Assembly (NCBI GenBank): GCA_050260635.1
Contig: JBLNCL010000006.1
Location: forward strand, 68,808-132,807
Length of the DNA: 64,000 nt
Origin: Betaproteobacteria bacterium
GTDB lineage: Bacteria > Bacillota > UBA5301 > DYFA01
Direction of reading: 5' to 3'
Positions 267 to 61,348 of this stretch are shown one piece after another. Position 1 is the stretch's first letter. Each line of letters begins with the position of its first letter. The notes under the pieces are model-generated. The model did no database searches. It was given only the letters and a program-made list of their open reading frames with translations, and had not been told where the DNA came from. Both the position numbers and the translations under genes were made by a program.

Positions 267-1001
267 TCACCGCTCCCGGTAGGTGAGGATATTCAGGCCA
301 ACCTGCAACTCGTCCCCGTCTCTCAACTCGGCCTCCTCGACCAGCTCGCCGTTGCGCCGCGTGCCGTTCCGGCTACCGAGGTCGCGCAGCCGCGTCGCAC
401 CATTCTCCCAGATCAGGACGGCATGGTAGCGGGAAACGTTGCTGTCCCCCATGACCAGGTCGTTGTCGTCAGCCCGACCTAGCCGGTTCTCCCCCGGCCG
501 GAGCCCGAGGCTCCGGCCGGCGTCGGGACCATGGACCACCGAGACCTCAGGCGCCGCTCCTCGCGGCCGGCGAAACACCATGGTCGTCTCGCCCGGCGCC
601 CTCGCGCCGGCCTCCCCGTCGGAGGGCCGATCCTCGCCCACAACAAAGGACGCCTCGGCTTGAAACGTGCCGGTAGGAAGGTCGGCGTCTTCGTCCCACG
701 TTACGGTCAAGGGCCCAACCAACGCGTACCCCTGCCGGTGGGCCAGCCGGGTCAGATGCTGGCTGAGCTCCCCCGAGAGCTGAGCGGAGATGCTTGCGAG
801 GCGGGCACGGTCCGGAGGGGAAAGGCGAACCCGGAACGAGTTGGGAGCGTAGACGGCGCTGACGCTGATTTGTTTTTGCTCTTCCATGAGGCGAGCCAGC
901 TTCCGCCCGATCTCAACCGGCTGAACACCGCCGGAGCGCCGCCGGAAAAGGCCCTCGATCCCTTGTTCGAGCCAGCCTTCGAGACGGTCGAAGAGGCTCA
1001 T
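267..1001 (-). CDS. FhaA-like protein: N-terminal DUF3662 plus C-terminal FHA (forkhead-associated) domain
   Basis: 244 aa. The C-terminus (GRADDNDLVMGDSNVSRYHAVLIWENGATRLRDLGSRNGTRRNGELV) is a typical FHA fold. The N-terminus (MSLFDRLEGWLEQGIEGLFRR...VQPVEIGRKLARLMEEQKQISVSAVYAPNSFRVRLSPPD) resembles the FhaA N-domain. ATGA overlap with the rlmN stop. Confidence 0.8.
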   Translation of the reverse strand: MSLFDRLEGWLEQGIEGLFRRRSGGVQPVEIGRKLARLMEEQKQISVSAVYAPNSFRVRLSPPDRARLASISAQLSGELSQHLTRLAHRQGYALVGPLTVTWDEDADLPTGTFQAEASFVVGEDRPSDGEAGARAPGETTMVFRRPRGAAPEVSVVHGPDAGRSLGLRPGENRLGRADDNDLVMGDSNVSRYHAVLIWENGATRLRDLGSRNGTRRNGELVEEAELRDGDELQVGLNILTYRER

Positions 1002-3214: not shown

Positions 3215-4021
3215 TCAGCTCGCCCGGAGCTTGACCCGGAGCTGATCGGCGATTTTGGCGATCAGGAGTGAATTGGAGGGGAACTTCCCCTTGGTCGAAA
3301 TCGCCGACTTGCCAACGATGCTCGAAATGTACGGCCGGTTCCCGTGCTCCCAGGCGGTGAGGATGGCGTTCCGGATGGCCGCCTCCACGCCGCCGGTGGT
3401 AGTTCCGTATTTCTGGGCGATGCGCGGGTAGAGACTCTTGGTCAGGTTGCCGCCAAGCGTCGAGTCCTCCTCGAGAACCATGATCACGGCATCGCGGATG
3501 TAGTTGTACCCCTTAAAGTGAGCCGGAATCCCCATGAGGTGAATTATCTCGGTTACCATGGTCATCAGGTCCCGCTTGCCCGCCGAAGGGAGAGGCGGCT
3601 GGTGGAAATCTCCCGCTATCAGCGACCCCTCCTTGATGAGCGGAGCGGAGTCCTCAGCGAACTGCCTTATCCGGGTCACCAGCACCTCCATGTCGAACGG
3701 CTTGACCAGGTAGTAGTCGGCCCCGAGCTGGGTCAGCTTGAGGATCAGGTCCTCCCGTCCAAAGGCGGTCAAGATGATAATCTTGGGCCGCTTGGTCAGG
3801 TTCAGTGAGGGCAGGCGTTCCAACACCGCCAGTCCATCCAGCACCGGCATCGTGATGTCCAGAATCACCACGTCCGGATTCTGCTCCTGGATCAGGCGGA
3901 GCGCTTGCTCCCCATCGTAGGCCGTCCCCACAACCTCGATGTCCTCCAGCTTCTCGAAGAAACGGTTGAGGATCGTGCACAGCTCGACATTGTTGTCCGC
4001 GATGAGGACTCTGATCACCAA
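3215..4021 (-). CDS. spo0A: Sporulation master regulator Spo0A (response regulator)
   Basis: 268 aa, collinear with B. subtilis Spo0A. Receiver domain (VLIADNN...DVVILDITMPVLDGLAVLERL). C-terminal Spo0A-specific DNA-binding domain (IIHLMGIPAHFKGYNYIRDAV...AIRNAILTAWEHGN...IAKIADQLRVKL). TTG/GTG start, with a GGAGGAGGG SD. Confidence 0.92.
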   Translation of the reverse strand: MVIRVLIADNNVELCTILNRFFEKLEDIEVVGTAYDGEQALRLIQEQNPDVVILDITMPVLDGLAVLERLPSLNLTKRPKIIILTAFGREDLILKLTQLGADYYLVKPFDMEVLVTRIRQFAEDSAPLIKEGSLIAGDFHQPPLPSAGKRDLMTMVTEIIHLMGIPAHFKGYNYIRDAVIMVLEEDSTLGGNLTKSLYPRIAQKYGTTTGGVEAAIRNAILTAWEHGNRPYISSIVGKSAISTKGKFPSNSLLIAKIADQLRVKLRAS

Positions 4022-5525: not shown

Positions 5526-6233
5526 TTACTCGTCGCGGCTCTGCTGCCGGATCAGCAGGAACTGGACCAACTGCAGGACAGCCACCAGGGCTGCTGCGAC
5601 GTACGTCCAGGCGGCGGCGGAGAGCACCTTCCACGCCCCGTCCGTCTCCTCCGGCAAGAGGTACCCGCCTTCCTCCAAGACGGTCACGGCCCGGCGGGAA
5701 GCGTTAAGTTCCACGGGCAGCGTGATTAGCTGGAAGAGAAGGGCCCCAGTGAAGAGGAGGATCCCCAGATTGATCAACCAGAGCCCGCCTTGGCCCAGGA
5801 AAAACCCGAGGATGACCAGAGGAAAGGCCACATTCGTGCCCAGGTTGGCTACGGGAACGAGACTGTTCCGGATGCCCAGGGGAGCGTAACTGGTGGCATG
5901 CTGGAGGGCGTGTCCCGCCTCATGGGCTGCCACTCCGAGCGCCGCCAGGCTGTCTTCCCGGTAAACCGGCGCTGAGAGACGGACCACCCGATGCCGGGGA
6001 TCATAGTGGTCGGTCAGGTTACCCGGAATCGGCTCCACCGCCACGTCGTGGAGGCCGGCCTGGTCGAGCACGGCCCTGGCCACCTGGGCGCCCGTCAGGC
6101 CGCGGCGGCTCCGGACCCGGGAGTACCGGGCGAAGGTGTTGCTCACCTTGGCCTGTGCCCAGAAGGCGAGGATGAGCCCCGGAATCAGGACATACCAGTA
6201 TGGGTTATAGCCGAAGAGAAACATCGCATCCAC
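5526..6233 (-). CDS. Membrane zinc metallopeptidase (YugP/peptidase_M-like)
   Basis: 235 aa. N-terminus FLFGYNPYWYVLIPGLILAF. HEAGHALQH zinc motif. Multiple TM segments. Confidence 0.75.
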   Translation of the reverse strand: MDAMFLFGYNPYWYVLIPGLILAFWAQAKVSNTFARYSRVRSRRGLTGAQVARAVLDQAGLHDVAVEPIPGNLTDHYDPRHRVVRLSAPVYREDSLAALGVAAHEAGHALQHATSYAPLGIRNSLVPVANLGTNVAFPLVILGFFLGQGGLWLINLGILLFTGALLFQLITLPVELNASRRAVTVLEEGGYLLPEETDGAWKVLSAAAWTYVAAALVAVLQLVQFLLIRQQSRDE

Positions 6234-6996
6234 CTCCAGAAATGCTTGGCTGGTCCGCCCGGAGGAACCGGTCGAGAGCCGCCTCCAGCCGTGCCAGGTT
6301 TAGCTGCGTGTTGACGCAGTACCCGTGGGGCCGGTCGTTCACAATGCCGTATACCGGCAACGGGAAGGTTTCCAACAGTCCGCTGGTCAAGTCGCGCTCA
6401 CAGGCCACGGCGATCACCGCCGCCGGACGGAGATCGTGGATGATCTTGCGGGCCATTCCCCCGCCGGTCGCCACCGCCAGGCGGACCCCGCGGTTTTCCG
6501 CCAGCCTCACCACCTCACCGATTTGACATCCCCCGCACCGCCGGCAGTTTCGGGCATCAACCGTGATCCGGTGGGGACAACCCGCCTGCTGCAGACAGTG
6601 GGGAACCAGAACCAGGACCTGCTCCGGACGAAGGACAGACGGCACTGCCAGGTCAGCCAGGGCGTTATTGACCGCCACGAAGGACAGCTGCACCCGCTCC
6701 TTCGGCACGCCCACCAGCGGGCCGAGGCGGAGCGTCACCGGGTACATGAGCTCCAGCATCAGCCGGACGAAGGGGGCCAGAAACACCGTCCGCCCACCCC
6801 AGACGCTGGCGGCGACAGCGATAACCCCCGCGGCGACCACCACCACGACCATGAACCCCAGCCAAGCCCCAGCGATGACAAGGACCTGCCCCCAGGTCCC
6901 GCGGCGTGCCAGCGACCAGATCGCCGCCGCCACAGCGCCGCCGACCAGGGCAACAGCAGTTACCAGCCCCAGGAACACCCTCTTGCGTACCGGCAT
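6205..6996 (-). CDS. DUF116-family membrane protein (Cys-rich CRRCGGC motif)
   Basis: 263 aa. N-terminal TM helices, then CRRCGGCQIGEV...LAVATGGGMARKII. This family commonly sits between fmt and rsmB in Clostridia-type genomes. Confidence 0.6.
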   Translation of the reverse strand: MPVRKRVFLGLVTAVALVGGAVAAAIWSLARRGTWGQVLVIAGAWLGFMVVVVVAAGVIAVAASVWGGRTVFLAPFVRLMLELMYPVTLRLGPLVGVPKERVQLSFVAVNNALADLAVPSVLRPEQVLVLVPHCLQQAGCPHRITVDARNCRRCGGCQIGEVVRLAENRGVRLAVATGGGMARKIIHDLRPAAVIAVACERDLTSGLLETFPLPVYGIVNDRPHGYCVNTQLNLARLEAALDRFLRADQPSISGGGCDVSLRL

Positions 6997-18327: not shown

Positions 18328-18356
18328 TTGTCCCCCCTGTCAGGCGATGGTATACT
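18328..18356 (+). promoter_or_regulatory. Putative sigma-A promoter of rqcH
   Basis: TTGTCC, 17 nt, TATACT. An SD GTGAGGTGG and an ATG at 18377 lie downstream. The listed ORF start at 18347 falls inside the -10 element. Confidence 0.45.
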
Positions 18357-18376
18357 GGAGCGTGAGGTGGCCTGAG

Positions 18377-20200
18377 ATGCCCATGGATGCGGCGGTTTTC
18401 GCCGCCCTCGCCCGGGAACTCGACTGTGAGCTCAGGGAGGCCCGGCTGGAGAAGATCATCCCGCTCAACCCCCAGGAACTCCGCTTTCTCCTCCGCCTCC
18501 CCTCGGGAGGCGGCCGACCGGAGCGCGCACTGATCGTTTCGCTCGACGGTCCGCTGGCCCGCCTCCACCTGGAGGCCCCCGGCCGCAGCAGCGACGAGCC
18601 GTCCGCCGCCTCTCCGTTCGCGCTGCTCCTGCGGCGGCACCTGCCGGGGTGCCGCCTGAGTGGGGTCCACCATCCGGCCTGGGAGCGAATCCTCCACTTC
18701 ACCTTCATTGGCCCCGCCGACGAGTTCCCCCGCCGGCGCCTGACCTTGATTTACGAGCTCTTTGGCGCCAAGGGGAACATTCTGCTGCTCGACGCCCAGA
18801 GAATCCTCCTAGGCAGCCTGCGCCCCCTTTCTGAGGGGGACAACCGGTTGCAGATCGGCGCTCCGTACGCTGCCCCACCTCCCCCGACGGCTACCCCGGG
18901 GGCGCCTCTGGCCTATCTGCAGCAGGCGATTGCCCTTGCCCCTGCCGACGCCCCGCTCCGCTTCGCTTTGGTGCGCAACGTGGGCGGGTTGGGCCCCTGG
19001 GCGGCCGCGGCGCTCATCCGGGCGGCCGGCCTCGACCCGGACGAACCCTGCGGGGCGATGCCGCCGGACGGCGCGGCTCTCCTCTGCGAGCAGCTGTCCG
19101 CCTTCGCTGAGGACGTGGCCGCCGGGCGCTTCTCCCCCGCCCTCTGGCGGCAGGGCGGCGAGCTGCGCGAGTTTTGGGTCTATCCCGCCCCGGTCCCCCC
19201 CGGCTGGACCGTTGAGCCCCAGGCCAGCGCCAACGAGGCGGTGGCGAGGTTCTTCGCCGAGCAGGTCAGCGCAACCCGCCTCGCCCGGGGCCGGCAGACC
19301 CTCCTCCAGCGCCTCGACGCCCAGCTCGCCCGCCTGGAGCGGAAGCTTCGGGCCCAGCAGCAGGATCTCGCCCGAGCCGAGGCCGCCGACGACCTCCGCC
19401 GGTCGGGAGAACTTATCCTGGCCAATCTTCCCCAGCTAAGCCGGGGCATGACCGTCTTCACCGGCGTGTCTTACGCTGATTCCACCCCTCGTACCGTGTC
19501 CCTCGACCCCCGGCTCAGCCCGCCCGAAAATGCGCAGCGCTACTTTGCCCGCTACCGGAAGGCCAAGCGGGGCCAGGAGGAGGCAGCCACCCGGGTGAGG
19601 GCAACGGAGGAGTTGTTCAAGCGGACCCGTCAGGCCCGCTTCGAGGCGCAGGACGCCGAGAGCCTCGCCGAACTCAAGGCGCTCGCCGCGCAGCTCGTGG
19701 AGGAGGGGATCCTGGAGGAGGCCACCCTCCGCCCCCAGCCTGGCCGCAAAGTTGTTCCGCCGGCCACTCCCGGACCAAACAAGCCGAGCCCGCGCCGCTA
19801 CCGTTCGACCGACGGATACGAGATCCTGGCCGGCCGGAACAGCCGCGAGAACGACTGGTTGACCCTCCGCTCGGGCGCTCCCCACGACCTCTGGCTCCAC
19901 GTTAAGGACCTGGCCGGAGCCCACGTCATCCTCCGCCTGCCGGCGGAAGGGCCGATACCTGAGGGGGCGCTGCGAGAAGCGGCCCAGATCGCCGCCTATC
20001 ACAGTGAGGGGCGGCAGAGTAGCCGGGTTCCGGTGGACTACACTCCCCGTCGCCATGTGCGCAAGGCTCCCCGCGGCGGTCCGGGTCAGGTCTTCTACGA
20101 CCATCACCGGACCCTTTATGTTACCCCCGACCCCGCCCTGGTCGCCCGTCTGCGGGTGAACGACGCTCCCGGCGAGCAGCCGGTGGAGGGTCCGCGGTGA
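18377..20200 (+). CDS. rqcH: RqcH/YloA (NFACT-domain, Rqc2 homolog; 'fibronectin-binding protein A' family) ribosome quality-control factor
   Basis: NFACT-N, coiled coil, and an NFACT-R/DUF814 region (GYEILAGRNSRENDWLTLRSGAPHDLWLHVKDLAGAHVILR). Same position as B. subtilis yloA beside yloB. I placed the start at the MPMDAAV Met, after the SD. Confidence 0.85.
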   Translation: MPMDAAVFAALARELDCELREARLEKIIPLNPQELRFLLRLPSGGGRPERALIVSLDGPLARLHLEAPGRSSDEPSAASPFALLLRRHLPGCRLSGVHHPAWERILHFTFIGPADEFPRRRLTLIYELFGAKGNILLLDAQRILLGSLRPLSEGDNRLQIGAPYAAPPPPTATPGAPLAYLQQAIALAPADAPLRFALVRNVGGLGPWAAAALIRAAGLDPDEPCGAMPPDGAALLCEQLSAFAEDVAAGRFSPALWRQGGELREFWVYPAPVPPGWTVEPQASANEAVARFFAEQVSATRLARGRQTLLQRLDAQLARLERKLRAQQQDLARAEAADDLRRSGELILANLPQLSRGMTVFTGVSYADSTPRTVSLDPRLSPPENAQRYFARYRKAKRGQEEAATRVRATEELFKRTRQARFEAQDAESLAELKALAAQLVEEGILEEATLRPQPGRKVVPPATPGPNKPSPRRYRSTDGYEILAGRNSRENDWLTLRSGAPHDLWLHVKDLAGAHVILRLPAEGPIPEGALREAAQIAAYHSEGRQSSRVPVDYTPRRHVRKAPRGGPGQVFYDHHRTLYVTPDPALVARLRVNDAPGEQPVEGPR

Positions 20201-22545
20201 AGCGGCGCATCAACCCTCTGTACGTGGTCCTGGCCACCCTGATCCTGGCGGTGGAAGGCGGTATCTTTCTCTACCTGAAGGCCACCAACTTGACTGAGCG
20301 ACTGACCGGCCCGGGGTTGGCCGGCCAGGTGGCCGCCGTCAGACGGACGGCCGCCTTCAGCCTGCCCGGGCTGGGCGACGTTCGGGTGGAGGCGCAGCCA
20401 GGCGGCTATGCCACCAGGTCGAGAAGAGACGGCCGCTTCGCCCTGAAGCTGCCCCCTGGCGTCTATGAGGTGACCTTCTCCGCCGCCGGCTATCTCCCAC
20501 ACCGCGAGCGGGTGCAGGTCCTCTCCGCCGGGCCGACCTACCTCTGGCCGGCTCTCTTCCCCCGGCCAACTGGTCCGCCGGTGCCGTCCCTCATGCGCAG
20601 CCTGCGCTCGCCGGGCGACGGGCCGGTGGCCTACAACACAGGGATCATTCTCGACGCCTCCGGGTCCCAGAACGTCATCCCGGACGGTCTCCGCTGGGAG
20701 ATAACGGACGAGGCGGGCCACATCCTCACCGATCCCTACACCCAACCGAGCCGCCCCCTCCAGCTCAAACCCTCGCCGATCCCAGGCAGCTCTCCGCTGC
20801 TCGTCACCTTTGTCCCACCAGCCCCGGGGCGCTACAATGTCCGGCTCTACCTGAAGAATGCCTTTTCCAAGGCCCGCGAGGTGTTCGCCGATTTTTCCGT
20901 CGAGGCGGAGAACCGCAGCCCAGAGGCGGTTCCATTGGTGATCGCCGGCCCCAACCCGCCTGGCTATCGCCCCGATGGGAGGTTCAAGGTAGGCTCTGGC
21001 CTCCGCACGGTTCTCGCCGGGGAGACCGTCTACCTTGCCGCCTGGGCCTTCGACAAGAACTACCCCTCGCCGGAGTTGTACCATCCCGCTGGGCGGCAGC
21101 CGGACGCCTACGGGAAGAACTTTCTTCCCCCCTTGAGCCGATACACCTGGAGATGGCGCCTGTACAGGATGGACGGGTCTCGGCGGAGCGACGTGACGGG
21201 GCTTCTCCGGGCAGACGAGCCGGGGCCAGCGGACCGCTCGCCTTACCCCTGGTTCGTGGCCGAACGGCCGGGGCGGTACCTCGCCTCTCTCTGGGCGGAG
21301 GACCACGACCCCCACGGCTCCCGCCTCGGCAGTCCGACCACCCTGGAGATCACCGTCCTGCCGCGGGAGGGAGCGCTGGTCTCCGAGCAGACGTGCTCCC
21401 AGGATGGCTGCCACCCTGCGCAGCGAACGGCAGCCGCCCTCAGACCACACATGACCTGCCAGTCCTGTCATGGTCCAGGCCAGCCCCACCTGGTCGCCCG
21501 GGACCGGGAGAGCAGGACCGCCACGATGCAGGTGTCCTACGAGGCGGCCCAGTGCGGCCGCTGCCACCGGCAGTACGCCGAGTGGGAGAAGTCCCGTCAC
21601 GCCGACGGTTACGCCTTCGGCTACCAGGAGATCGCCAAGCCGCTCCTCTTGAACTGCGCCAAGTGCCACTATCCCCAGGGTTTCGCCGACGCGGCGGCCA
21701 TCGCCCGGAAGAAACGGGTTGACTTCGGCCAAATCGAGTTCAAGAAGGCGGCCTTCCCAGGGGGGCCGCTGGTGTACGACTTCGATAAACTGCCGGAGCG
21801 AGTCGGTCAGGGAGTCAGCTGCCAGGCCTGCCACGACCCTCATCAAATCGGCCCCCAGAACAAGTTGGGCCTGCGCCTCCCCAAGTCCCAGCTCTGCGGC
21901 TCCTGCCACGAGACCAAGTGGCAAAACGTCCTCCTCGAACAGACCGCCGGCCGGGTCGGCTCCGCCTACGAGTATCCCGGCCGCCAATACGCCAGCCAGA
22001 ACCCCCACAACACTGAAGAAAAGTGCCTGCTCTGCCACATGAGCAAGGACGCGCCAGAGCAGGATGAACACGGCGTGCGCAGGCTCGGCGGCCACACCCT
22101 TCGGATGCGCGACGCCGGCCCGGATGGTAAGCTTGGCGGCTTCGGTCCCGCCCCGGACGATCCCAACCGGCAGCGCGAGGCCTACGGGGCAGACGACCTC
22201 CTGAACCTCGCCCCCTGCCGGCGCTGCCACCTCGAGGCGACCACTTTCGACCTCGGAGGACGCCAAAGGGAGATCTACCAACTCTGGCTCGAACTGGGGC
22301 GCCGGCTGAAGGAGTTGAACCACGGCGTCCTCCCCGGTTACCGGCCGGGAGACAAGTGCGCCACCTGCCACCGCGGGGGAACCCTGCCCTTTGACCACGA
22401 TCCCAAGCTGGTCCTGGAGAACGCCTACACCAACTACAAGCTGGTCAAGAACGACCGGAGCTGGGGCATCCACAACTACCGCTATACCAAGCAGCTCCTC
22501 GAAGACTCCCTGCGGTCGCTGGAGGAGTTGACCCCGACCCGGTGA
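20197..22545 (+). CDS. Membrane-anchored multiheme c-type cytochrome. It has 8 CxxCH motifs, an N-terminal TM helix, a carboxypeptidase-regulatory-like domain and Ig-like domains.
   Basis: 782 aa. N-terminal TM VVLATLILAVEGGIFLYL. CarbopepD_reg-like segment (DGRFALKLPPGVYEVTFSAAGYLPHRERVQV). The C-terminal ~350 aa carry CQSCH, CGRCH, CAKCH, CQACH, CGSCH, CLLCH, CRRCH and CATCH, plus a possible variant CSQDGCH. The GTG start overlaps the rqcH TGA (GTGA). Confidence 0.8.
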   Translation: MKRRINPLYVVLATLILAVEGGIFLYLKATNLTERLTGPGLAGQVAAVRRTAAFSLPGLGDVRVEAQPGGYATRSRRDGRFALKLPPGVYEVTFSAAGYLPHRERVQVLSAGPTYLWPALFPRPTGPPVPSLMRSLRSPGDGPVAYNTGIILDASGSQNVIPDGLRWEITDEAGHILTDPYTQPSRPLQLKPSPIPGSSPLLVTFVPPAPGRYNVRLYLKNAFSKAREVFADFSVEAENRSPEAVPLVIAGPNPPGYRPDGRFKVGSGLRTVLAGETVYLAAWAFDKNYPSPELYHPAGRQPDAYGKNFLPPLSRYTWRWRLYRMDGSRRSDVTGLLRADEPGPADRSPYPWFVAERPGRYLASLWAEDHDPHGSRLGSPTTLEITVLPREGALVSEQTCSQDGCHPAQRTAAALRPHMTCQSCHGPGQPHLVARDRESRTATMQVSYEAAQCGRCHRQYAEWEKSRHADGYAFGYQEIAKPLLLNCAKCHYPQGFADAAAIARKKRVDFGQIEFKKAAFPGGPLVYDFDKLPERVGQGVSCQACHDPHQIGPQNKLGLRLPKSQLCGSCHETKWQNVLLEQTAGRVGSAYEYPGRQYASQNPHNTEEKCLLCHMSKDAPEQDEHGVRRLGGHTLRMRDAGPDGKLGGFGPAPDDPNRQREAYGADDLLNLAPCRRCHLEATTFDLGGRQREIYQLWLELGRRLKELNHGVLPGYRPGDKCATCHRGGTLPFDHDPKLVLENAYTNYKLVKNDRSWGIHNYRYTKQLLEDSLRSLEELTPTR

Positions 22546-22823
22546 ATGGAGACGAGAGCTTTGCCAAGACGGAGGCGGCGGCAGTGAGACAGTGGATGTC
22601 CTGGCTTTTCTTCTTTCTTCTACTGTGGTCGGGAGCGTCGGGCGAGGCACTCGCCCAAGCCGGCTGGCGGTTCAAGGATTACCGCATGGACGCAGAACGC
22701 GAGCTTCGCCTCCAAGGCAAAGCAGTCGGCCTGGGCTTCGACGTCTGCGTCCGGCTGGTCAGGACCAGCGCTGGGGACGAATCGGTCGAGTACAGTCTCG
22801 GGACGAGCTTACTGATGTTCTGA
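22542..22823 (+). CDS. Small hypothetical protein with a signal-peptide-like hydrophobic segment. A possible partner of the cytochrome.
   Basis: The GTG start overlaps the cytochrome TGA (GTGA again). Alternative start at Met 22596 (MSWLFFFLLLWSGASGEALAQAG...). GC3 about 75%. The 3' end overlaps the pepT stop convergently by 15 nt. Confidence 0.35.
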   Translation: MNGDESFAKTEAAAVRQWMSWLFFFLLLWSGASGEALAQAGWRFKDYRMDAERELRLQGKAVGLGFDVCVRLVRTSAGDESVEYSLGTSLLMF

Positions 22824-24101
22824 GCAAGAGCACCGCTGCGTGGGCGGACCAGGCTCCTCCGCCCACAGCAGCACAAGCTGGCAGGCGATCTCGGCTGCCT
22901 TCTCCATCCACTGGACAGAGGCCCACTCCCGGCGGGAGTGGACGTTCTCCGAGCCGTTGGAGAGGTTGGGCGTGGGGAGCCCCTTGAACGAGAGGCGGGC
23001 CCCGTCGGTCCCGCCGCGGATCGACCGGCGGACCGGCTCCACCCCGGCCCGGCGGATCGCCTCCTCGGCCAGTTTGACGACTTTGCGGTTCCGGTCGAGG
23101 ACTTCCCTCATGTTATCGTAGCTGTTGGTCTGCTTCACCTCGACGGCGGCGCCCGGGTAGCGCAGGGCGAGCAGGGCGCCCAACTCCCGCAGGGTCCGGT
23201 CCTTCCGCTCGATCCCTTCCCGGGTGAAGTCTCGGGCCAGAACCTTGATCGCCACCCGCTCGACGTTACCGCTGATCTCATCGGGATGGTAGAAGCCCTC
23301 CCGCCCATCGGTCGTCTCCGGACGGGCGGTGGCCGGGAAGGCGCTGACGAATTCCGCCGCCAGGTGGATGGCGTTGATCATCTTGCCCCGGGCGGAGCCG
23401 GTGTGGGCGCTGACGCCGGTGATGGTCACGGTGTAGTTGCGGGCGTAGAAGTTTTCCGCCTCCAGTTCCCCGATCCCGCTCCCGTCCAGGGTGTAGGCGA
23501 CATCGGCGCCGAACCTGGCCACGTCGAAGAGGTCGATCCCTCCGCCGACCTCCTCGTCCGGGGTGAAGGCCACCTTGACCGGGCCGTGCTTCAGTTCAGG
23601 CTCACGGAGAAGGCGGCAGAGGGTCTCCATGATGGCGGCGATGCCGGACTTATCGTCGGCCCCCAGGAGGGTGGTCCCATCGGAGGTGACAAGGTCGTGG
23701 CCGATGGCCTGGAGGAGTGCGGGGAATTCCGCCGGCGTGAGCGTTTCCCCGCTGGGCAGCCGGATCTCGCCCCCCTGGTAGTTCCGGTGGACGAGCGGTT
23801 TGACGTTGGCGCCCGGGACTCCCGGGAAGGTGTCGAGGTGGGCCAACAGGCCGATGGTCGGGGCTGGCCGGCCAAGGTTCCCGGGCAGAGTCGCCGTGAC
23901 GAACCCGTGGTCGTCGAGAGCGGCGTCCCTCAGGCCGAGGACCAGCAGTTCGTCCCGGAGCATCCGGGCCAAGTCCAGCTGTCCAGGAGTGCTGGGGACC
24001 TTCCCCGCCTCCTCCGCCGACGCCGTATCCACCTGGACATAGCGCAGGAACTTGGCCAACAGGCCTTCGTTGAGCAAGCTTTGACGATCCATCAACGACA
24101 C
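22809..24101 (-). CDS. pepT: Peptidase T (tripeptide aminopeptidase, M20B)
   Basis: 430 aa. N-terminus collinear with PepT (…YVQVDTASAEEAGKVPSTPGQLDLARML…GFVTATLPGN…PTIGLLAHLDT…TTLLGADDKSGIAAIME…). Confidence 0.88.
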   Translation of the reverse strand: MSLMDRQSLLNEGLLAKFLRYVQVDTASAEEAGKVPSTPGQLDLARMLRDELLVLGLRDAALDDHGFVTATLPGNLGRPAPTIGLLAHLDTFPGVPGANVKPLVHRNYQGGEIRLPSGETLTPAEFPALLQAIGHDLVTSDGTTLLGADDKSGIAAIMETLCRLLREPELKHGPVKVAFTPDEEVGGGIDLFDVARFGADVAYTLDGSGIGELEAENFYARNYTVTITGVSAHTGSARGKMINAIHLAAEFVSAFPATARPETTDGREGFYHPDEISGNVERVAIKVLARDFTREGIERKDRTLRELGALLALRYPGAAVEVKQTNSYDNMREVLDRNRKVVKLAEEAIRRAGVEPVRRSIRGGTDGARLSFKGLPTPNLSNGSENVHSRREWASVQWMEKAAEIACQLVLLWAEEPGPPTQRCSCSEHQ

Positions 24102-47163: not shown

Positions 47164-47354
47164 AACTTAAAGACTCAGGCCCATGTTCCGTGTCAATCTT
47201 AGCACGGGCCGGGAGCGGAGTCAAACAAAACTTGGTCCGCCAGAACGGCTGAATCATCCTCGATCAGAACAGCAGGATCCTTTGCGAGCTTGAAGGAACT
47301 TGTTGCCTGCGGCGGAAAATGTCATTATTGCTGGAGACCGGCGAAGGAGGGACG

Positions 47355-47798
47355 AAGATGGAGACTCAATTGGTGGTGTTCCGGCTCGCCAACGAGGATT
47401 TCGGGGTTCCGATCGGCCAGGTGAAGGAAATCAACCGGCTGGTGCCGATTACCTCGATACCGAAGGCGCCACCCGCCGTCCTGGGGGTCATCAATCTCCG
47501 GGGACGCATCATCCCTGTCTTCAGCCTCCGTCAACGTCTCGGGTTTGACCGTGGCGAAACGGACGACGCCACCCGGATTGTTGTGGCCGAGGTGGGCTCT
47601 GAGACCATCGGGTTTGTCGTGGATGCGGTGACAGAGGTCTTGCGCCTCGAGGACACCGCCATCGAGCCAGCCCCGGAAGGCTCCGGAGAGATCGATTCGA
47701 CCTTCATCCGCGGGATCGGCAAGGTGGACGGGCGCCTGATCATCGTGCTCGACGTGGAGAAGGTTTTCGGCTCGGCTGAACTCTCGGAGGCTTCCTAG
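47355..47798 (+). CDS. cheW: Chemotaxis coupling protein CheW (orphan)
   Basis: METQLVVFRLANEDFGVPIGQVKEINRLVPITSIPKAPPAVLGVINLRGRIIPVF… is a typical CheW fold sequence. An AAGGAGGG SD precedes ATG 47355. The listed start 47319 is upstream. Confidence 0.85.
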   Translation, partial: KMETQLVVFRLANEDFGVPIGQVKEINRLVPITSIPKAPPAVLGVINLRGRIIPVFSLRQRLGFDRGETDDATRIVVAEVGSETIGFVVDAVTEVLRLEDTAIEPAPEGSGEIDSTFIRGIGKVDGRLIIVLDVEKVFGSAELSEAS

Positions 47799-47884: not shown

Positions 47885-48583
47885 ATGACTCGTCATACCC
47901 TGCTCACCGTGTTCGCTCTGGTGCTTCTGGCGTTGGCTCCCCTGTATGGGCCCGCGGCCGAGGTGGAGGCCGCCTCACCCGCCCAGCGGATCAGCGACTC
48001 CCTCGAGGTCTTACGGGAGATGGCGCAGCAGTCAGACTCACAGGCCATGGCGAAGCTCCTGCAGAAGGCGAAGGGCGTAGCCGTCTTCCCCTCGGTGATC
48101 AAGGCGGGGCTGATGGTTGGCGGGCGCTACGGCGAGGGCCTCGTGCTCCGCCACGAACCCAACACCGGCGCCTGGTACGGCCCGAGTTTCGTGACCATCA
48201 AGGGCCTTTCCTACGGCCCACAGATTGGCTTCCAGTCCACTGCACTGGTCCTCGTGATCACGAACGACCAGGGAATGAAGAGATTCCGGGGCGACAAGGT
48301 GACGCTGGGCGGCGACCTCGCGGTCGCCGCCGGCCCGGTTGGCCGCCACGTGGAGGCCTCAACCGACGCCGACCTCAAGGCTTCGATCTACAGCTACTCG
48401 ATGAGCAAGGGGATCTTCGCCGGCCTTTCGTTGGAGGGTGCGGTGATCACCCCTGACGACCCGGCCAACGAATCCTACTGGAAGGCCCCCCTCCACCCCG
48501 ATGAAGCCCTCAACCGTCGAGCAGCAGCCGCCGTCCAGCCGCTGGTTCAGGAACTCGAACGCCTGATCACCCAGGCAAAGTGA
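47885..48583 (+). CDS. Secreted SYLF (Ysc84/DUF500) domain protein
   Basis: 232 aa. Signal peptide [33 protein letters not shown]-like core ([14 protein letters not shown]…[12 protein letters not shown]…[14 protein letters not shown]…[12 protein letters not shown]). Domain call by eye. Confidence 0.65.
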
Positions 48584-60881: not shown

Positions 60882-60911
60882 AGTATATTATGCCCCGGGG
60901 CGGGGCGTCAA
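60882..60911 (-). promoter_or_regulatory. Putative sigma-A promoter for the ileS T-box leader
   Basis: On the minus strand: TTGACG, 18 nt, TATACT. The -35 element overlaps the divIVA stop codon. Confidence 0.4.
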
Positions 60912-61348
60912 GGAGCTGTTTTGGCCGGCTCCCCCGCTGCCCCGGCCGGCGCCCCCCCGTCCTCGGCCAGCATGGCCCGGTACGACTCGAGCATCGCCTG
61001 AAACTGGATGGCGAAGAGCCGGCGCTGGTTGCGCAGGGCTTCCAGCCTTTGCGCCTCCTCCCGCACCGCTTGGCGCAAACGCTCCAGTTCGCCAGCGAGC
61101 TGCGGGAACTCCTGCTGCTCAGCGGCGTCAGCCTGCGGCACCACCGTCACCCGGGCTTCTCGCCCCTCCCCTCCGGCCGCCGCGGCCTCGCCTACCCCGG
61201 CCAGCTTCTCTTTCAGCACCTGGTTCTCCCGGAGAAGCTGTTCGTATTCGATCACCACCCGGTCGAGGAACTCGTCCACCTCGGCCTCGTTATACCCCCG
61301 GAAAGACCGGTGGAAAACGGTGTTCTGGATGTCGAGCGGTGTCAGCAT
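60908..61348 (-). CDS. divIVA: Cell-division protein DivIVA
   Basis: 146 aa (MLTPLDIQNTVFHRSFRGYNEAEVDEFLDRVVIEYEQLLRENQVLKEKL…). Coiled coil. Confidence 0.88.
   Translation of the reverse strand: MLTPLDIQNTVFHRSFRGYNEAEVDEFLDRVVIEYEQLLRENQVLKEKLAGVGEAAAAGGEGREARVTVVPQADAAEQQEFPQLAGELERLRQAVREEAQRLEALRNQRRLFAIQFQAMLESYRAMLAEDGGAPAGAAGEPAKTAP

Follow-up and report, generated by a model that had tools for sequence, protein, structure and literature searches.

The 64-kb stretch of contig JBLNCL010000006.1 analyzed here (the window) carries, between rqcH and a gene for an M20 peptidase, a gene for a c-type cytochrome with nine haem sites, which is predicted to be membrane-anchored and to bear its haem domain on a stalk. 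The open reading frame (ORF) runs from 20197 to 22545 on the plus strand, in agreement with the first-pass annotation, and encodes 782 amino acids; the protein is identical to MGE5552694.1. The start codon is a GTG that overlaps the TGA stop codon of rqcH as GTGA (20197–20200). Direct reading of the sequence places a Shine-Dalgarno-like GGAGGG (20185–20190, plus strand) 6 nt upstream of it, and the N-termini of homologues line up with this start in the alignment.

Eight CxxCH motifs begin at C421, C453, C487, C542, C567, C610, C674 and C721, and a further motif with a longer spacer is formed by C400-x4-C405-H406. All 18 cysteines of the protein sit inside these motifs, and shuffles of the sequence that preserve its composition (n = 2000) gave a mean of 0.0095 CxxCH motifs, with a maximum of one. 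The GC content at third codon positions (GC3) is 0.85 in the plus frame and 0.78–0.91 in the adjoining genes, compared with 0.67 in an antisense ORF of 844 aa (20116–22650, minus strand) that spans the whole cytochrome gene. The plus frame is, therefore, the real one. The antisense ORF, in which the GC content at first codon positions (GC1) of 0.83 is the signature of a shadow frame, is ruled out as the true gene by its GC3, as had been expected from the first inspection. Long antisense or shadow frames of this sort, reaching 844 aa, are common in the window (67% GC), and their low GC3 and high GC1 mark them as artefacts.

Haem domain and relatives of known structure

The proteins of known structure to which the haem domain was compared include the members of a homologous group that comprises NrfA, ONR, HAO, MccA, OcwA and OmhA (Soares et al. 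2022, PMC9250108). OcwA (TherJR_2595, PDB 6I5B) is a nonahaem terminal reductase of the outer cell wall of Thermincola potens JR, with six bis-His haems, one His/Met haem and two penta-coordinate haems (PMC6703420). OmhA (PDB 6QVM) is an undecahaem, S-layer-associated protein of Carboxydothermus ferrireducens that is located at the cell surface and linked to ferrihydrite reduction (PMC7829351). For both, a role as terminal reductase at the surface of Gram-positive cells is documented (PMC6703420, PMC7829351, PMC9250108).

A profile of the cytochrome family, searched against the PDB sequences, matched OcwA (6i5b) with an E-value of 9.5e-16, MccA with 1e-9 and OmhA (6qvm) with 3e-9, and hhalign paired the profile with OcwA at 99.85% probability (E 1e-29, 28% identity over 314 columns). 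The OcwA sequence used, taken from its alignment with the OcwA-like protein P0172, covered index positions 13–211 and 250–499, with 212–249 missing, and PDB numbers correspond to the index plus 29. Folds were compared with a separate model of the haem domain, since the full-length model retrieved only strings of Ig/FN3 domains. This model scored 14.8 against OmhA, 14.6 against OcwA (27% identity over 274 residues), 11.6 against ONR, about 10.5 against NrfA, 8.4 against HAO and 7.1 against MccA, and a Foldseek search returned OcwA first. The homology to OcwA is secure because the profile E-value, the fold comparison and hhalign agree. The protein shares with the whole group the fold of the haem domain, and also the C-terminal three-helix bundle with its His-containing helix.

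The nonahaem domain is formed by residues 396–782 (about 385 aa; 21382–22542, plus strand, as are all features of the gene described below) and adopts an OcwA/OmhA-like fold in the model. Site 1, C400-SQDG-C405-H406 (21394–21414), aligns with OcwA haem 2 (CAGCH) in hhalign. Its spacer varies among 34 members of the family, with two residues in 21, three in two, four in ten (including the query) and five in one, and its Cys and His are invariant. Because these residues are kept and the CX4CH is aligned with CX2CH in relatives, the motif is a genuine ninth haem site, and the count of eight haems given in the first-pass annotation, where the CX4CH was listed only as possible, has to be corrected. 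All 34 members examined carry exactly nine haem motifs, invariant down to 41% identity. Conservation of the motifs in homologues had been proposed as a check on the gene, and it gave no ground for doubt; nine invariant CXnCH motifs are what is expected of a multihaem c-type cytochrome in general.

Sites 2 to 9 are invariant CxxCH motifs. Site 2 (C421QSCH, 21457–21471) is followed by GPGxxH with H431 and aligns with OcwA CEQCHGPGAKH (haem 3). Site 3 (C453GRCH, 21553–21567), followed by QYAEWEKSRH with H468, aligns with CGQCH (haem 4), and the W..S.H motif after it resembles MccA. Site 4 (C487AKCH, 21655–21669) was paired with CLKCH (haem 5) by manual alignment of QYAEWEKSRHA...NCAKCH with QYPEWLMTGHA...RCLKCH, in a region where the automatic alignment is weak. 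Sites 5 (C542QACH-DP-H549, 21820–21834), 6 (C567GSCH, 21895–21909), 7 (C610LLCH-M, 22024–22038) and 8 (C674RRCH, 22216–22230) align with CQVCHASH (haem 6), CTQCH (haem 7), CVDCHM (haem 8) and CSSCH (haem 9), respectively. Site 9 (C721ATCH, 22357–22371) lies within PGDKCATCHRGGTLPF, where conservation in the family is highest, and stands opposite an OcwA loop that has no motif.

The haem of site 9 sits between the helices of the C-terminal three-helix bundle (residues 686–776, 22252–22524; helices 686–707, 736–752 and 761–776 in the model), which contains the conserved NDRSWGIHNY with H759. Residues 739–776 of the bundle align with OcwA 461–495 and MccA 655–692, including GxH. The bundle haem is common only to a subgroup that includes the relatives P0041 and P0042, and more distant relatives lack it. 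These two are compact lipoprotein nonahaem cytochromes (360–376 aa) that share the motif PG.xCxxCHRGGTxPF and are 47–48% identical to the query over its C-terminal 112 residues. A further protein, P0046 (337 aa, 7 CxxCH), has CNQCK at the position of the bundle haem, with Lys instead of His.

Six His residues outside the motifs (H431, H468, H549, H604, H633 and H759) are invariant in the family, and all of them except H604 align with a His of OcwA. A seventh, in [WY]xx[ET][ST]xH after site 1, is present in 14 of 14 distant members and has been lost in the subclade of the query. Six haems are thus predicted to be bis-His coordinated, and three to lack a conserved His as sixth ligand. By position, sites 1 and 4 are suggestive of counterparts of the two open haems of OcwA.

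The query and OcwA have nine haems each and six conserved distal His, and both come from Firmicutes. Query sites 1–8 are collinear with OcwA haems 2–9, and the motifs CxxCHGPGxxH, QYxEWxx[ST]xH, CHxxH, CxxCHM and, in the last helix, G[IV]HNY are shared. The differences are, however, substantial. The alignment spans OcwA 122–499 only, so that OcwA haem 1 and the beta-domain that follows it have no counterpart in the query, which has instead the extra haem in the helix bundle and adds a membrane helix and a beta-sandwich stalk of about 360 residues. An insertion of about 60 residues that contains H281/H282 of OcwA is absent from the query, and the segment with H380/H381 is deleted. Relative to the family, both of these distal His-His pairs (index 252/253 and 351/352) are located in gaps or insertions, and no HH dipeptide is present in the query or conserved among its relatives.

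The profile match to OmhA covers query sites 1–7. OmhA differs in having eleven haems, with an N-terminal extension of two haems (PMC9250108), and in keeping non-bonding distal His residues that the query does not have; a CarboxypepD_reg/PKD stalk and a membrane helix are not reported for it. Membership of the OcwA/OmhA clade is rejected on the absence of the HH pairs and the unmatched order of the OcwA haems, and the sequence comparisons place the cytochrome as a homologue of OcwA and OmhA outside their clade. The statement in the first-pass annotation that the protein matches no described family consequently needs to be divided: the haem module belongs to a described group, but the particular family and its architecture are undescribed.

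The other candidates among known cytochromes were rejected. MccA of Wolinella succinogenes (PDB 4RKM) resembles the query in the motif of the last helix and in its haem 1 region, to which the CxxCH-x-QYxxWxxSxH of the query is similar, but the query has neither the CX15CH haem nor the Cu-binding cysteines of MccA, and the haem number is different. NrfA is distinguished by the CxxCK motif of its active-site haem, which the query lacks; no nitrite-reductase model is among the NCBIfam matches at E ≤ 1, and no NrfH- or MccCD-type partner gene is found near the query or conserved beside its homologues. Identity with NrfA or MccA is, therefore, ruled out by the lack of CxxCK, CX15CH and spare cysteines. 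The likeness to the decahaem proteins MtrC, OmcA and MtrF of Shewanella is one of functional analogy only, as envelope-displayed terminal reductases. The Pfam model PF22113 (MtrC/MtrF domains II/IV) is exceeded at 31.4 bits against a cut-off of 30, but the solved chains give no significant match (E 0.35–0.8) and there is no MtrAB-type porin partner. With OcwA and OmhA as the closest structures, membership of the MtrC/OmcA family was also rejected.

Predicted envelope anchor and stalk

Residues 7–31 (20215–20289), located after K2-R3-R4, form a hydrophobic helix in the AlphaFold2 model that is predicted to act as a signal anchor in an N-in/C-out orientation. A hydrophobic window of at least 19 residues is present in 29 of 29 relatives checked, and Lys or Arg precedes it in 27 of them. 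This conservation fits Sec export with a signal anchor and bears out the N-terminal transmembrane helix proposed in the first-pass annotation. A basic N-terminus followed by a hydrophobic helix is, at the level of prediction, also the export signal expected of a multihaem cytochrome.

The segment between the helix and the haem domain consists of three beta-sandwich domains in the model. D1 (residues 38–120, 20308–20556) is a CarboxypepD_reg-like domain according to Pfam PF13620 and the model (pLDDT 83–94); its Pfam score of 32.2 bits is just under the cut-off of 32.3, and homologues lie clearly above the cut-off, with up to 80 bits. A Pro-rich linker, FPRPTGPPVPSLMRSLRSPGDGP (residues 121–144, 20557–20628), is almost devoid of regular secondary structure in the model and leads to D2 (residues 145–240, 20629–20916), a PKD/Ig-like domain with a weak Pfam PKD match in the query and a PKD annotation in several homologues. 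D3 (residues 243–390, 20923–21366) occurs in all family members, and is kept even in those that match the query only from about residue 200–242 onward and in P0027. The hypothesis that D3 corresponds to the N-terminal beta-domain that OcwA shares with MccA was rejected at the sequence level (hhalign 0.3%). The CarboxypepD_reg-like and Ig-like domains noted at first are thus present, but as three beta-sandwiches, not as one domain and a generic Pro-rich segment.

The loop D.N.PSPELY.P.G..PD.YGKN of D3 (residues 286–308, 21052–21120) is invariant in the family and is modelled with a pLDDT below 50. A second loop, D.DP.G, is invariant as well, and these Asp/Asn-rich loops look like a putative metal-binding or interface site.

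Apart from the domains of the stalk, the Pfam hidden Markov model (HMM) search that had been proposed as a check retrieved Cytochrome_C7, Paired_CXXCH_1 and MtrC/MtrF_II-IV, with CarboxypepD_reg just below threshold and PKD weak, and no NCBIfam model comes near its cut-off for this protein. In the fold search, the full-length AlphaFold model matches tandem Ig/FN3 proteins only, including the S-layer proteins Sap and SbsB and the stalks of adhesins.

Relatives of the cytochrome carry other devices for attachment. SLH domains together with a signal peptide are found in P0030 (E 3e-31) and in an ORF of a Bacillota metagenome-assembled genome (MAG) at locus L022 (E 5e-33). P0032 carries a type I dockerin at its C-terminus and P0034 a terminal run of TSP3 repeats; one more distant relative combines a membrane helix with collagen repeats. 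That a single module is found with so many kinds of envelope attachment is the strongest comparative indication of display in the cell envelope; a cell-surface location of the cytochrome is plausible on these grounds.

Family, genomic setting and host

A word-indexed search of 5.8 billion clusters yielded 26 relatives, 24 of them full length (43–77% identity), nearly all from MAGs or unassembled metagenomes. An exhaustive HMM search with the profile of the haem domain against 1.84 billion representatives gave about 13 full-length clusters (50% identity) at E ≤ 1e-90. Below these the scores fall sharply, and other multihaem proteins appear at E-values of about 1e-35 or weaker; OcwA itself reaches only 61 bits against the family profile, and more than 150 other cluster representatives score higher. 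The family is, on these searches, small and well delimited. Record titles trace the homologues to anaerobic digesters and the deep subsurface (DTU025, AS09, UBA, Soudan, CROMO, DeMMO), and the public names of the members are generic. A literature search for CarboxypepD_reg, SLH or Limnochordia in combination with multihaem proteins found no description of the family. A giant relative, P0052 (1946 aa), consists of three tandem modules, each with one CX4CH and eight CxxCH, and thus contains 27 haem motifs.

The upstream neighbour, rqcH (NFACT; 18347–20200, plus strand; Pfam NFACT_N, E 4e-75), is preceded by the sole promoter-like site that the promoter scan found in the region (18328–18356). Since this site lies 5′ of rqcH, the two genes are probably co-transcribed; rqcH is context and not a functional partner of the cytochrome. 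Downstream, the gene for the M20 peptidase, identified by Pfam scan, is on the minus strand (22809–24101). Farther away, one side holds genes for a TPR protein, a P-type ATPase, YicC, Gmk, CoaBC and PriA; the other has the pur and pyr operons and genes for an opp transporter, Lgt, IleRS and DivIVA. The annotation of the window thus agrees with the housekeeping region described at first, and no respiratory genes are found in the window. Among the housekeeping genes near spo0A are those for an FhaA-N/FHA-domain protein (267–1001, minus strand) and a DUF116 protein (6205–6996, minus strand). A cheW gene (47319–47798, plus strand) and a Ysc84-domain gene (47885–48583, plus strand) are located between the pyr genes and the opp oligopeptide transporter operon, with no further chemotaxis genes beside cheW in the window.

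The 77%-identical orthologue P0002 lies at the syntenic position, separated from rqcH by one extra gene. Together with the GC and GC3 of the cytochrome gene, which agree with those of its flanks, this synteny indicates that the gene is native and not a recent acquisition. The extra gene is RsgA-like GTPase/ABC-type (L035, 8824–9909). Only the P0002 locus is syntenic; the 72%- and 65%-identical homologues show no synteny with the window, and elsewhere the cytochrome gene is a stand-alone unit in unrelated contexts. An all-versus-all BLAST of the flanks revealed no gene family in more than four of 30 homologue loci. The comparison of neighbourhoods, also proposed at the outset, therefore ended without broadly shared neighbours.

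Other multihaem genes are found next to some of the homologues. An HAO/HDH-like octahaem gene (PF13447, E 1e-23 to 2e-31) is no more than 3.6 kb away from a homologue in three of about 30 loci, from different lineages: L002 (1529–2782, plus strand), L024 (14541–16085, minus strand) and L027 (13579–14904, plus strand). Such a neighbour may point to nitrogen-oxide chemistry, or may be a partner of the cytochrome. Close homologues are accompanied by a protein with 11 CxxCH motifs in L004 (3921–5162, plus strand) and by one with five CxxCH motifs and weak NrfB/NapC-like matches in L001 (6457–7518, plus strand). The window contains none of these HAO-like, 11-haem or 5-haem genes.

The public record of MGE5552694.1 bears the label 'Betaproteobacteria bacterium'. 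The window, however, encodes Spo0A (3215–4021, minus strand), RqcH/NFACT and DivIVA (60908–61348, minus strand), which places the host in the Bacillota and shows the label to be wrong. The assignment to a Firmicute in the first-pass annotation is upheld, with Spo0A present. Labels attached to the MAGs of other homologues (Chitinophagales, Desulfovibrio, Nitrospirae) may be equally unreliable. The nearest relatives of the Spo0A protein, at 91–93% identity, also come from MAGs.

Proposed electron transfer at the cell envelope

We lean, with moderate confidence, towards an envelope-displayed, membrane-tethered cytochrome for terminal electron transfer, that is, a wire of the OcwA/OmhA type held on a stalk and directed toward external acceptors. 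We infer the topology, the function of the stalk, the coordination of the haems, the direction of electron flow and the acceptor as follows. After Sec export, the uncleaved N-terminal helix would keep the cytochrome on the cytoplasmic membrane, and the three beta-sandwich domains with the Pro-rich linker would act as a stalk that keeps the compact nine-haem domain off the membrane, at a position within the cell wall or outside it. Packed closely together, the nine covalent haems would make up an electron wire of the type seen in NrfA and OcwA. Electrons would reach it from carriers in the membrane or wall space, whose genes would lie elsewhere in the genome, and would pass from terminal haems exposed to solvent to an acceptor outside the cytoplasm. 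As with OcwA and OmhA, the likeliest acceptors would be insoluble oxidants or oxidants outside the cell (humics, flavins, Fe(III) or Mn(IV) minerals), or else a syntrophic partner. One or two haems without a His sixth ligand could, by analogy to OcwA, bind or reduce small molecules.

Several observations weigh against this arrangement. No electron donor, quinol dehydrogenase or other multihaem cytochrome is encoded in the window, and no donor, quinol dehydrogenase or maturation gene is conserved beside the homologues in 30 loci. Genes for cytochrome c maturation are likewise missing from the window, and no ORF with the WWD motif of the CcsA/ResC type occurs in it or in 564 kb of homologue loci. 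With both distal His-His pairs of OcwA and OmhA missing, the putative open haems may have another chemistry than in these two proteins. The structure models comprise the polypeptide only, and the coordination and packing of the haems are predictions. From the typical size of Ig domains, a stalk of three domains would measure about 10–13 nm, maybe too short for a thick Gram-positive wall. The type of envelope is itself a concern: the named relatives of the Spo0A protein (Limnochordales, Limnochordia, Carboxydochorda) are only about 50–53% identical, and Limnochordia have been proposed to be diderm; no outer-membrane marker gene is among the genes annotated in the window. Finally, some MAGs labelled Gammaproteobacteria or Deltaproteobacteria contain relatives of this architecture, and in such hosts the protein would face the periplasm and not the cell exterior. 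Proteobacterial labels of this kind are, however, unreliable, as that of the source record itself shows.

The strongest alternative, which we consider rather unlikely, is a tethered catalytic reductase of a soluble substrate such as nitrite, hydroxylamine, NO, sulfite, tetrathionate or polysulfide. Such an NrfA/ONR/OTR/MccA-like enzyme would work in the wall space or periplasm, with catalysis at a penta-coordinate haem and a stalk that only positions it. Reduction of nitrite or NO in vitro is common to every characterised member of the group, OcwA included (PMC9250108, PMC6703420), and the three haems without a conserved His sixth ligand, the HAO/HDH-like genes near homologues in L002, L024 and L027 and the occurrence of the architecture in MAGs labelled proteobacterial are all in line with an enzyme. 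The cytochrome has, however, no CxxCK motif, no CX15CH and no spare Cys for a Cu site of the MccA type, and the segments with the distal His-His pairs of OcwA are gaps or insertions in the alignment. Its closest structures are OcwA and OmhA, the two proteins of extracellular electron transfer, and not the enzymes of the group; SLH and dockerin anchors are typical of surface display and unusual for periplasmic enzymes, and neither the window nor most of the loci have the HAO-like neighbour. If the alternative were true, the protein would merely be a tethered nitrite- or sulfite-type reductase, of routine interest.

Electron flow could also be inward or lateral, so that the cytochrome would be supplied with electrons by minerals, by electrodes or by a partner cell, the last as direct interspecies electron transfer, or would mainly store them in the envelope as a capacitor. 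Multihaem wires are reversible in principle, the homologues come by record title from digester and deep-subsurface MAGs, and the gene stands alone in housekeeping regions without a respiratory operon around it, all of which would suit such a role. It shares its structure with the outward wire and differs from it in physiology only; the sequence gives no evidence on the direction of flow, and the neighbourhood contains no partner or uptake-linked genes. We regard uptake or storage as distinctly improbable. Lastly, the notion that the locus encodes no functional cytochrome, and that the ORF is a pseudogene, a chance product of a high-GC genome in which long spurious frames are many, or a shadow of the 844-aa antisense ORF that covers it, is refuted by the codon-position evidence (GC3 0.85 versus 0.67) and by conservation (26 homologues at E ≤ 1e-3, 24 of them full length, with purifying selection on all 18 Cys and 15 His), besides the beta-sandwich domains predicted at high confidence, the Shine-Dalgarno sequence ahead of the start and a chance expectation of only 0.0095 CxxCH motifs.

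The outward-directed wire on a stalk belongs to a known kind of system, namely the envelope-displayed multihaem cytochromes of the NrfA-like group in Firmicutes, because its haem module is homologous to OcwA within the group of Soares et al. 2022 (PMC9250108). The novelty lies in the family itself: no curated model covers it, and the literature searched describes neither the family nor its haem complement, stalk and swappable anchors. OcwA and OmhA are the only solved and characterised terminal cytochromes from Gram-positive cell surfaces, and the family constitutes a third distinct branch, marked by another haem complement, by the lack of the distal His-His pockets and by a built-in stalk with interchangeable anchors. 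The loss of the N-terminal haem and the gain of the bundle haem agree with the 'grafting and pruning' view of multihaem evolution.

A bolder proposal, which we hold to be improbable, is that the protein is a modular and self-contained electron outlet, with anchor, Ig-like spacer and nine-haem wire in one polypeptide. If true, the anchor would be interchangeable between a membrane helix, SLH domains and a dockerin, the last perhaps plugging into cohesin scaffolds, and electrons would leave or enter at a site that differs from the one in OcwA owing to the additional haem in the bundle and the loss of His ligands. In digesters and the deep subsurface, uncultured Bacillota could then exchange electrons with minerals or partners without a dedicated multi-cytochrome operon. 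The family occurs in uncultured Bacillota of these environments, where mineral-mediated and direct interspecies electron transfer are debated. For such communities the family offers a single-gene candidate and a metatranscriptome marker for reactors with conductive material.

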